Shown here: in pieces, positions 52,304 to 55,088 of the stretch
How the letters are laid out: each line of letters starts with the position of its first letter
Position numbering within the stretch: position 1 is the stretch's first letter
DNA from: Neodothiora populina
Lineage: Eukaryota
Reading direction: 5' to 3'
DNA length: 64,000 nt
Assembly (NCBI RefSeq): GCF_041146345.1
Contig: NW_027191419.1
Coordinates: 682,001 to 746,000, forward strand
The notes under the pieces: model-generated
What the model was told of the DNA's origin: nothing
Seen by the model: the letters and a program-made list of their open reading frames with translations, nothing else
Databases searched by the model: none
Made by a program: the position numbers and the translations under genes

Positions 52304-53087
52304 CTAAACCTTCATCTCGGAGAGACCGTGCTGCAGGGACAGTTAGTCATTGATTACACGGTATTTCAAAACAAGTCAGACTTGCCTTCCAGATGGTCAC
52401 GAAAGGAGTGACACCGTCCTCACGGTAGTTGAGGAGGATGACCATTCCATCGGGGTCCATGGACTCGCCAATGAAGAACTCGTAATCCTTGAAGTTACCG
52501 ACAATCTTCTTGGCGTAAGCAGCGGCGCCCTTCTCGAAAGCGGTGACATCCTCGTCGGAGGCCTTGTTGGCCTTCATGGTCTCCTTGACCTTCTTCATGT
52601 AGCCCTTGAGGTAGGTGAGGTAGGACTTCTTGTCGAAAGAGGTCTCGTTAAGACGGAAAGAGTGGACGACATCGATGACGGTCTCGGCGGTGTCGTCGGT
52701 CTGCTCCTCGCCGTCCTCAGCAGAAGGGTTGGCACCAATGTCTGTGGACAAATGTCAGACCACTTGTCTCATGTAATCTTTTCCTCCGTAGTGTGGTTGA
52801 GTGGTGATGCGACGCTACATACCGAATGACTCGGCACCGATGGTGATCTTCTTGCAGTCGGCCTCGTAGACAGCGCCGTCGATCAGCTTAAGATCGTACG
52901 AGTCAGAGATGAGCTCGTCTCCGGTGATGATGTCCTGCGCAAGAGAGGTGGTCAGCATTGGGCTCAAGAGAAAAAGGTGAAGAGGGGTAAGGCAGAATCG
53001 TGAAGGTCTGTCAAGGCGGGAACTCCTCAGACACCCTGCTACGATAGCGCCACCTGGGAGAATATAGCGCACCTTGTAAATGATCAT
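52304..53087 (-). CDS. TMA19: Translationally controlled tumour protein (TCTP), 4 exons, last intron GC-AG
   Basis: [18 protein letters not shown]...IGANPSAE...[12 protein letters not shown]...[19 protein letters not shown]. Confidence 0.96.
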
Positions 53088-53600
53088 TTTGGCGGTATGA
53101 AGATGGATAGAGAGGTGGTGAGAGGAAGAGAAGTGGTGAAGAGGGGGGACGAAAGAGTGGTAAAGTCAACAGGAAATGTTGGAGACGTGGGGCTTTTTTC
53201 CTTCTGCTTCCTCTTCTGGCTTCTGGGCCATAGGGAAAGAGGAAAGACCCTCGGGACCGTCCAGCCCTGACTCTCTACTCGCTTTTACTCGCTGTTACTC
53301 GCTGTCACTCGCTTTGTCTCTGCTTTCTCTGCCTTGCGCTAACCCTATCCTGACTCGCCTGATCCGCTTGAACGTCTTGGCTCTCTTTCATGCATCCAGG
53401 TTGGTCACAGCTTACAGTAATAGCAGAAGCAGCACAAACGCCAAGATTATCCCCTTCGGCTACCGCCCGCTCGGGCCACACACTGCTGAAATCTCAGCTT
53501 CCTCCCAGACCCCAAACTCCATCTCGAAAGTTGGAACTTTTTGATCTTGATCTTGATCTCCAGCGCATCCATCACGACCAGCCCCGCCGCCAAAACGTAG

Positions 53601-53825
53601 GTATGTTCTCGCTTCGTACAACAAGCAAAGTAGTGCCCTTCAGGTAGCCAAGGAGATCACTCACCACGCACGCGCCGTGAGATATATATACATATCTCGC
53701 AATGTGCCTGGTGACACTGGTTTACCTATCACGGACGAGCTGAAGAACCCTTCAAAATGTCTGTAGCGGACTGAAGGGCACTCTTTGCGCTCATGGCTTC
53801 CGAGGGCTAACATGTATCTCCACAG
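53601..53825 (+). promoter_or_regulatory. Structured 5'-UTR intron of RPS22
   Basis: GTATGT donor, GCTAAC branch point and CAG acceptor 50 nt before the ATG. It contains a long inverted repeat (53625-53643 / 53771-53788). Confidence 0.75.
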
Positions 53826-53875
53826 ATACCTCATACCGCAACTCGCCGTTTGAGAATCTCAGTCAATACTTCAAA

Positions 53876-54509
53876 ATGGTCAAGACTTCCGTCCTTAACG
53901 ATGCGCTCAACGCCATCAACAACGCCGAGAAGAGCGGCAAGCGCCAGGTCCTCATCCGCCCCAGCTCCAAGGTCATTGTCAAGTTCTTGAGCGTCATGCA
54001 GAAGCACGGTATGTAATGTCATGTCCAGCTACCATCAATCCCCCCTCTATCCCTTCACCATCACCAATCCTACCCGGGTTGATAACTAGGCGGACGGTCT
54101 CAAAAATCCCACGGCCTCTGCCCTTTAAGTATCCGGAACATCAGAGATTCTTTCTCAGCGAAGATCTTACACGTTCACCGATCTTTCCCATGAAGTACAG
54201 CTTTTAAATTTTCGCGACATATCCCACTGACATGCTCTTTGCATTTCAGGCTACATTGGCGAGTTCGAGGAGGTTGACGACCACCGCAACGGCAAGATTG
54301 TCATCCAGCTCAACGGACGTCTCAACAAGACTGGTGTCATTTCTCCCCGCTACAACGTCCAGCTCCGTGACATGGAGAAGTGGGTTGTCAAGCTCCTTCC
54401 TTCCCGTCAATTCGGTTACATCGTCCTTACCACCTCTGCCGGTATCATGGACCACGAGGAGGCCCGCAGAAAGCATGTCGCTGGCAAAATCCTCGGGTTC
54501 TTCTACTAG
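53876..54509 (+). CDS. RPS22: 40S ribosomal protein S22 (uS8)
   Basis: [38 protein letters not shown]...[20 protein letters not shown]...GKILGFFY*. Intron 54009-54250. Confidence 0.97.
54073..54222 (+). ncRNA. snR44: Intronic box H/ACA snoRNA, snR44 homolog
   Basis: The 5' hairpin CCGGGTTGATAACTAG...TTTAAGTATCCGG resembles yeast snR44 (recalled from memory). Box H ACATCA lies at 54138-54143, the second hairpin is closed by GCGAAGAT/ATTTTCGC, and ACA is at 54217-54219. Yeast snR44 also lies in RPS22B intron 2. Confidence 0.82.
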
Positions 54510-55088
54510 ATGTCGAAAGACGACTAGACGGTTGTGATCCAGGGATGGTCAAATAAAAGTTTTATATGCGTGTCTGAATAGATACCCAATCAAGGCCTGC
54601 ATTTGGCGCGCACCTATCTTTTTGCTATTCTTCTCTTCGTGATTATGTATGTGTGAAATGTTTCGGAGGATTTGAATTTTCTACTGAATCCTGGAGTGCT
54701 ATTGTGAATGTGGTAAGGTGAGCACTGGCATGACCAAGGTAGAAAACTGCCGTTGCCTCCTCGCAAGATTAAGATGTGCATATGTGACGAGCAGCACACC
54801 GCCGCGGTGGTTTGGCTTTGCTTTCACCCGTGTGTTGCACGTTATTGTCCGTGTGAAGATATCAGAATCAAAAATATCAGAGTCCCCGCGTCTAAAGCAG
54901 TGGCCCAACGAAGATTCTGTGCTGCGATCTGACACGCCGCTGACGGCATTGCTTAATTGCACGGCGTCAATAGTCCATCAAGGTTTCCTGACTGTGGCAC
55001 GCATCCTTTGTGACTCCCGTCCTTACACCACCTATAGTAACATCTACAGCTACCGGATTACCCCATATACGCCATCTGTATATATATA

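Follow-up and report, generated by a model that had tools for sequence, protein, structure and literature searches.

We analysed a window of 64,000 nucleotides (nt) of Neodothiora populina (RefSeq assembly GCF_041146345.1, contig NW_027191419.1, positions 682,001 to 746,000), which contains a gene for the ribosomal protein uS8 (Rps22) with one intron in its 5' untranslated region (5' UTR) and another in its coding region. Among related loci, the 5'-UTR intron and the 5'-UTR exon that follows it hold near-invariant blocks that go beyond mere intron structure. Our best reading is that they form the filamentous-ascomycete counterpart of the regulatory element of Saccharomyces cerevisiae RPS22B, in a new and more elaborate variant. 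The gene is laid out as follows, in coordinates of the window.

53601-53825, + strand: 5'-UTR intron of the uS8/RPS22 gene, 225 nt, from GUAUGU through the branch site GCUAAC (53806-11, branch A 53810) to AG (53824-25); read from the sequence
53876-54509, + strand: uS8 coding region, in exons 53876-54008 and 54250-54509, with a Pfam Ribosomal_S8 match in both
53876-78 and 54507-09, + strand: uS8 start codon and stop codon; read from the sequence
54009-54249, + strand: coding intron of the uS8 gene
54072-54222, + strand: snR44-like H/ACA small nucleolar RNA (snoRNA), Rfam RF01262, within the coding intron

A first-pass annotation had taken the first of these features for a 5'-UTR intron of uS8/RPS22. 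This is borne out by the Pfam matches in the two coding exons and by the transcript of a relative. A 234-nt RNA contig (80% likeness) covers 53824-54010 and jumps to 54252-54285, and the 12 loose letters that precede 53824 are the end of exon 1 (window 53588-53598) save for one inserted letter. Hence, this transcript has lost both introns at the predicted junctions. The RNA contigs of relatives, from four runs, do not cover the 5'-UTR intron and give no measure of its retention. Two metagenome contigs, L041 and L049, carry an intron-less junction in which CACGAG is joined directly to AUACCUCAG: L041 (the whole contig, 1150 nt) and L049 (upstream of 252) show the uS8 leader minus its 5'-UTR intron, and L041 has, further upstream, part of a second copy without the coding intron. 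Both look like cDNA-derived or retro-copied sequence.

The same annotation had proposed an Rfam search, in case the intron was simply a known snoRNA. No Rfam family matched the window's 5'-UTR intron at E-values up to 10, nor, at the gathering score, that of 18 related loci, and we saw no snoRNA boxes in the window's intron. The sole match in 53300-54700 was snR44 in the coding intron (31.6 bits, E 5e-4; gathering score 33), which is above the gathering score at the corresponding place in 15 of the 18 related loci. The Rfam snoRNA matches are confined to the coding intron and give no support to a snoRNA encoded in the 5'-UTR intron. The snR44 of the coding intron, the near-invariant blocks and a hairpin in the downstream 5'-UTR exon all lie beyond what the first pass had listed.

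Conservation of the leader

Relatives were sought by scanning metagenome contigs with exon 1 and five upstream codons. This gave 228 confirmed loci, of which we used the best 80; these hold 68 distinct upstream regions, to which that of the window was added. We compared the 340 nt before each AUG. Presence was counted in those distinct regions, 62 in number, that extend 330 nt or more upstream. Alignment A1 comprises 50 sequences: besides the window there are 49 loci chosen for having GGCACTCT together with a recognisable 5' splice site; 19 were left out, 2 of them truncated and 17 lacking GGCACTCT. The elements named below were delimited as follows.

53625-53643, + strand: block A, 5' arm of a long-range 'zipper' stem, with the conserved core GCCCUU at 53635-53640
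53651-53727, + strand: site 1 hairpin, with the internal loop C53660 / C53715-A53716-C53717
53737-53754, + strand: block D, GAGCUG-A-AGA-(A53747)-CCCUUCA, 5' half of the D:E hairpin
53755-53770, + strand: apical loop of D:E, of freely varying length and sequence among loci; holds an upstream AUG at 53757-59
53771-53792, + strand: block E, CUGAAGGG-(C53779 A53780 C53781)-UCU-U-UG-C-GCUC, which pairs with A (long range) or D (local)
53793-53811, + strand: block F, AUGGCUUCCGAGG, the stretch immediately upstream of the branch site together with GCUAAC itself; third partner for A
53824-53859, + strand: site 2 hairpin, AG-AU-AC-CUCA (53824-33) and UGAG-A-AUCU (53851-59), starting with the 3' splice-site AG and otherwise in the 5'-UTR exon

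The share of the majority letter is 0.94 in block D and 0.98 and 0.99 in the two strands of site 2, against 0.13 in the 5' variable part of the intron. The yardstick is the adjacent coding exon: the four-fold sites of exon 1 have a mean pairwise identity of 0.62, and none of its 8 universally four-fold sites is invariant. The blocks are thus more conserved than the synonymous sites beside them. The core from D to E is found in 50 of the 62 distinct regions, and both strands of site 2 (AGRYACCUC followed 5-45 nt on by GAGAAYCU) in 56 of them, but in none of 12,400 shuffled regions. Block F is conserved in A1 beyond the branch consensus. In L031, L044, L047 and L062 the distance from the conserved, branch-like GGCUGAC box to the 3' splice site is longer by some 25-110 nt; hence block F is conserved even where it is perhaps not the branch site in use. 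Such near-invariance shows that the sequence is read by something, though it does not tell the identity of the reader.

The intron also folds strongly. Its minimum free energy is -87.4 kcal/mol in the window, compared with -59.5 ± 4.0 for 200 dinucleotide shuffles (z -7.0, none of the 200 as good), and the 49 related introns fold better than their shuffles as a class (median z -2.94; 33 of the 49 below -2). This strength of folding matters less than the conservation.

Mutually exclusive pairings

The first-pass annotation had described a large outer stem with further stems nested in it, a CCCUUCA that competes for one of its strands, a repeat of the start context and an upstream open reading frame (uORF), and all these features are present. 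It had drawn from them that the intron can adopt two mutually exclusive folds. The outer stem, A:E, joins GCAAAG-u-AGUGCCCUUCAG (53625-53643) to CUGAAGGGCACU-CUUUGC (53771-53788) by 12 perfect base pairs (bp) and 6 bp beyond one bulged U, while the CCCUUCA of block D (53748-53754) is complementary to the UGAAGGG of block E. Both pairings use the AAGGG of block E, so that the folds exclude each other. Conservation divides the outer stem: its 6-bp core with E is kept among relatives, whereas the GCAAAG/CUUUGC extension of 6 bp is confined to the window and four relatives.

Both pairings bear marks of being maintained. In the A:E core, 36-46 of the 41-46 rows with letters at both columns have a standard pair (GC, CG, UA or G-U wobble), and the outermost core pair is UA in 20 and UG in 20. 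The A-to-G change of block E behind this is matched by a compensatory U-to-C change in block D, whereas block A kept its U as a G-U wobble. Among the 35 distinct sequences that have block A, we compared the duplex energies of cognate and non-cognate strands with 5000 permutations. Cognate strands were favoured for A:E (-16.8 against -14.9 kcal/mol), for D:E with its tail (-17.8 against -15.9) and for A:F (-11.9 against -10.6), with no permutation as good in any of the three; A:F was assessed by duplex energy as its register shifts between sub-families. The control pairs A:D and D:F showed no cognate advantage (754 and 3669 of 5000 permutations, respectively). When A:E and D:E were each forced in the 31 sequences able to form both column-wise, the median difference was -0.3 kcal/mol, 16 sequences favouring A:E and 15 D:E, with 14 within 3 kcal/mol. 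The claim of two exclusive folds is therefore upheld, as covariation, duplex permutations and forced folds agree that both are kept in relatives and nearly isoenergetic. This fits a splicing switch between a zipper and a protein-bound alternative, of the type described for RPL7B.

Concerning the local hairpins, RNAalifold on A1 gave the irregular D:E hairpin and part of the exon hairpin, and no A:E outer stem. D:E, site 1 and site 2 taken jointly have 86.3% of their cells paired, against 81.4 ± 0.5 with shuffled columns (0 of 500 as high) and 33-56% with slid partners. D:E alone reaches 95-96%, against 24-63% when its 3' partners are slid, and compensatory changes occur at its top (UA:19/CG:18). 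A covariance model of the D:E domain (R1; 50 positions, 14 pairs) gave one match per locus (63 matches among 81 sources, each with E no higher than 2.3e-6); in the 64-kb window its single match is 53733-53792 (55.4 bits), the next having E 8.6. Compensatory changes concentrate in site 1, where 9 of 9 lower-stem pairs changed on both sides and an upper-stem pair (columns 101/240 of A1) is AU in 20 sequences and GC in 20. In the window this hairpin reads AGAUCA-C-UCACCA...UGGUGA-CAC-UGGUUU, with the nested stems at 53661-53714 and a variable apical part (53667-53708). The A:E core and the D:E pairing that the first pass reported are kept and covary in relatives; the same does not hold for the start-codon copy, discussed below.

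In site 2, 97% of the cells are paired and a single change is compensatory (L013, GGUAC/AACCU). Folded as isolated exon segments, all 44 distinct sequences retain 4 or more of the 8 site 2 pairs in their fold of minimum free energy, and 32 retain all 8, at a modest stability (median z -1.5). Exon 1 ends in AG (53599-53600), as does the intron (53824-53825), so that splicing rebuilds the lower stem AGAU:AUCU and the mature mRNA still carries the hairpin, 16 nt ahead of its AUG. The start of the downstream 5'-UTR exon, AUACCUC (53826-53832), is also complementary to the 5' splice site at 53598-53604, the match extending to 6 bp in the window (AGGUAU) and to 7 bp where a locus has GAG before GUAU; hence the same strand can pair either there or with the other strand of site 2.

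These pairings bear on two alternatives. The stems could be a constitutive splicing aid without protein sensing, in which the zipper (A:E or A:F) and site 2 merely bring the splice sites and the branch point closer together, so that a highly expressed gene is spliced efficiently. Zipper stems are common in yeast ribosomal-protein introns (PMC13232506; PMC12311795), the ends of A:E leave 24 nt to the 5' splice site and 22 nt to the branch A, and the complementarity of the exon start to the 5' splice site would act in the same sense. A pure spacer helix should, however, covary freely, whereas in this leader hardly any variation is seen in the loops, in the unpaired nucleotides (A / CAC, AC / A) or in entire strands, among loci whose synonymous sites are scrambled. 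In addition, the second, exclusive fold is conserved too, and site 2 remains in the spliced mRNA. We regard a pure splicing aid as unlikely.

The other alternative places the function in the DNA. Enhancers can reside in the first introns of ribosomal protein genes, and UGAGA-A-UCUCA is nearly palindromic, as might be expected of conserved transcription-factor sites downstream of the transcription start. Such sites would not explain why pairing is kept by compensatory changes, why cognate strands co-evolve across more than 100 nt, or why G-U pairs, which work on the transcribed strand only, are frequent (AU:34/GU:16, GU:27/GC:16, UA:20/UG:20). A DNA-level element is very improbable.

The first pass had tentatively placed the function of the intron partly in a decoy start. 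The 10-mer CTTCAAAATG does occur twice in the window, at 53750-59 and around the true start (53869-78), and the first copy opens a uORF of five codons (ATG TCT GTA GCG GAC TGA, 53757-53774), which could divert ribosomes on RNA that retains the intron. This identity is real, and retained-intron RNA would indeed meet upstream AUGs, of which the window's intron has 5. However, among 47 distinct introns the 10-mer copy occurs in 1, that of the window, with an 8-mer in 2 and a 7-mer in 3, and it is missing from L001, whose exon 1 matches that of the window at 100%. The copy lies in the variable apical loop of D:E; half of it (CCCUUCA) is fixed by block D, and the remainder resembles the A-rich stretch before the AUG in most related loci. 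Each of the 49 related introns has 1-10 AUGs without such a copy, and the yeast RPS22B intron has seven (PMC7732827), so that retention would block translation without any special decoy. The copy is probably due to chance, and a designed decoy is scarcely credible.

A shared loop module and its counterparts

Site 1, D:E and site 2 share one module, in which A, C or AA stands opposite Y-A-C between two helices. The loop of D:E reads AGA-A-CCC / GGG-CAC-UCU and that of site 2 UGAG-A-AUCU / AGAU-AC-CUCA, and many relatives carry AGC-AA-UCG / CGA-UAC-GCU at site 1. A scan for the loop motif gave 125 instances in the 50 sequences against 7.2 ± 2.6 in shuffles, some instances being alternative registers of one site and site 2 falling mostly below the helix threshold. 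Outside the main family the loop can be followed by eye, with no support from the covariance model: the divergent L027, L034 and L073 keep it on changed stems (UUGA-A-UCCC / GGGA-CAC-UCAA), and L079 has AUGA-C-UCC / GGA-CAC-UCAU. L079, which has the strongest snR44 match (87 bits), carries the long-range intron stem GG-AA-UCAGUA / UACUGA-UAC-CC and, after it, a local C / CAC hairpin, in the same module order as the window. A protein encoded next to the uS8 gene in the L027 group is a generic WD40 protein, uninformative as to taxonomy.

The closest known counterpart is the autoregulatory element of S. cerevisiae RPS22B, known as the 'Hooks structure' (Roy 2020, PMC7732827; Granas 2026, PMC13232506). 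Its 5'-UTR intron suffices for a more than 10-fold repression by excess Rps22, through inhibition of splicing (PMC7732827; PMC13232506). The central stem of this intron pairs ..AAGAAUCAAAG.. (AAUCAAAG) with ..CUUUGAU-ACCA-UU.., the bulge ACCA standing directly after GAU (PMC13232506 Supplementary Table 2). Deleting or scrambling ACCA, or breaking the stem, abolishes repression by Rps22, which is regained when the stem is restored; a further required region lies 3' of the central stem (deletion D2) (PMC13232506). Site 2 has exactly this yeast core, G-A-AUC / GAU-AC-C, and AA-UC / GA-UAC is the site 1 core of relatives. This makes plausible the first-pass suggestion that uS8 may bind the intron, since the conserved loop core coincides with the nucleotides that mutation shows to be needed for Rps22 repression (PMC13232506). 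Two further likenesses are seen in yeast: the 5'-UTR exon 1 contains AAGAUACCACA, a second copy of the GAUACCA of the essential bulge, and nt 352-357 or so of the intron read AAGAAC, like block D (PMC13232506 Supplementary Table 2).

The gene and its architecture, with a 5'-UTR intron and a coding intron that holds snR44, are also common to both, so that the host-gene and snoRNA arrangement of RPS22B is retained here. Hooks 2016 reported snR44 in the intron of this gene as common to Saccharomycotina and Pezizomycotina, but the yeast 5'-UTR structure as conserved within Saccharomycetaceae only (PMC4937481). The element described here differs from that of yeast in several respects. The intron is 225 nt long instead of 557, the loop module occurs three times, once in the downstream exon, where it overlaps the 3' splice site, and there is a near-invariant D:E domain with block F and an explicit alternative between A:E and D:E. 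Two screens for structured RNAs in fungi do not mention RPS22 or uS8 (PMC5640933; PMC8216456), and we found no description of the element outside Saccharomycetaceae in the full-text literature searched, which does not include subscription journals.

Another reader of the conserved sequence could be a factor different from uS8, for example an RNase III (Rnt1-type) nuclease, a splicing factor or another RNA-binding protein, or the intron might give rise to a stable non-coding RNA. Rnt1-type (RNase III) hairpins follow an AGNN tetraloop rule. No such tetraloop was seen in the hairpin loops of the window's predicted fold (relatives were not systematically examined), in which the intron again differs from that of RPS22B. 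The yeast intron is an Rnt1p substrate and is 'maintained' after splicing (PMC4937481; PMC13232506), and invariance tells of a reader without naming it. Against such a platform stand the results of the Rfam and snoRNA-box searches, the exonic position of site 2, which lies outside any excised intron RNA, and the coincidence of the motif with the nucleotides required for the Rps22 response in yeast. A reader other than uS8 seems to us quite unlikely.

A second comparison is with RPL7B, whose zipper stem is in competition with an alternative structure that is conserved, excludes the zipper and is bound by Rpl7 (Granas 2025, PMC12311795). Here too, a stem that draws the 5' splice site near to the branch point competes with a conserved exclusive alternative. 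Protein and sequences are different, an A:F pairing and an exon module are present, and the branch site is GCUAAC, whereas the nonconsensus UGCUAAC of RPL7B makes its zipper necessary.

The modules also resemble the bacterial S8 site. Helix 21 of Escherichia coli 16S rRNA has AAGUC / GAUACU at 595-599 / 639-644, and the start region of rplE holds GAUUACU. The fungal 3' strand G-R-Y-A-C-U opposite A-N-Y-C would have the topology of A596-G597-U598-C599 / G639-A640-U641-A642-C643-U644, and relatives such as L014 carry GAUACU exactly; in both systems the same protein family would exert feedback, in bacteria at the spc-operon operator at the rplE start. In helix 21, G597 pairs with C643. The fungal modules have A or C at the position of G597, so that this pair is missing, the AA / UAC form has one extra nucleotide, and bacteria repress translation of the operon and not splicing. 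The authors of PMC13232506 state that they could not align the yeast site with bacterial S8 sites and give no binding model. The resemblance, judged on sequence, is a lead.

Proposed mechanism, setting and significance

We propose that the leader is an autoregulatory element for uS8, homologous or closely analogous to that of yeast RPS22B, in which three uS8-type loop modules and a two-state pairing control splicing; we give this a probability of roughly 0.6. In this proposal, uS8 beyond what ribosome assembly consumes would bind the three modules and stabilise the local D:E hairpin against the long-range A:E zipper, whose formation shortens the distance between 5' splice site and branch point to no more than about 46 nt. 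The bound state would free block A to pair with block F beside the branch site and would clamp the 3' splice site in site 2. Splicing would then fall, and the unspliced RNA, with its 5 intronic AUGs, would not be productively translated. Site 2, rebuilt in the spliced mRNA, may more speculatively add a translational layer.

A bolder form of the proposal sees in the modules an ancient uS8 sensor that spans the Ascomycota and has kept the core of the bacterial S8 site in rRNA (G-R-Y-A-C-U opposite A-N-Y-C), so that one mode of recognition would have been reused from the spc operon to fungal introns. The three modules would then form a bistable splicing switch (A:E against D:E plus A:F), with site 2 as a second operator that represses translation of the mature mRNA. 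We regard this extension as tentative and rather doubtful.

Several observations weigh against the autoregulatory reading itself. The A1 loci were chosen for GGCACTCT, whose invariance in A1 is therefore by construction. Kinship among the sequences makes the permutation and shuffle controls overstate independence, although the negative control pairings speak against a pure artefact of relatedness. Double changes occur in only 3 of the 14 pairs of D:E, the rest being invariant, and most pairs of D:E and site 2 never vary; the structure thus partly rests on the complementarity of invariant sequence. The site 1 of the window is itself C / CAC and not the AA / UAC that matches yeast. With filters off, R1 gave no significant match at the homologous place in eleven divergent loci, including the yeast-like L079 (best L029, E = 4). 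Short motifs and position, judged by eye, are hence the basis for homology to the element of yeast and for the link to these loci. The spliced yeast 5' UTR is not repressed (PMC7732827), which leaves a translational role of site 2 without precedent. The assignment of A:E as the 'on' fold and D:E as 'off' belongs to the proposal. Finally, no public run proved to contain this organism (best share of sampled words 0.16).

The uS8 gene stands head-to-head with another gene.

52347-53165, - strand: gene for TCTP, the translationally controlled tumour protein, with a Pfam TCTP match at E 4e-54

The two genes, both highly expressed, are divergent, and the intergenic region they share is a few hundred bases long. 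A large protein encoded in the window has its nearest Atlas clusters in Ascomycota. Upstream of the uS8 gene, in its promoter, there are short tandem repeats at 53270-53320, about four copies of a unit of some 11 nt (..UUACUCGCUGU..), and the 5'-UTR exon 1 has GAUCUU three times at 53541-53561.

Feedback by uS8 is textbook knowledge in bacteria, and in budding yeast it was shown only in 2020-2026 (PMC7732827; PMC13232506). With the roughly fifty divergent natural variants described here, the candidate for the recognition core comes down to a small internal loop, and predictions follow for the yeast nucleotides that matter, among them a hairpin with a CAC loop that should lie in the so far unexplained 'D2' region. 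Together the blocks make up a new RNA family, currently lacking in genome annotation and in Rfam. If our reading is true, the leader would provide a clear natural case of a protein-responsive two-state RNA switch that controls splicing, and the yeast mechanism would be a conserved feature of ascomycete ribosome homeostasis and not a peculiarity of Saccharomycetaceae.

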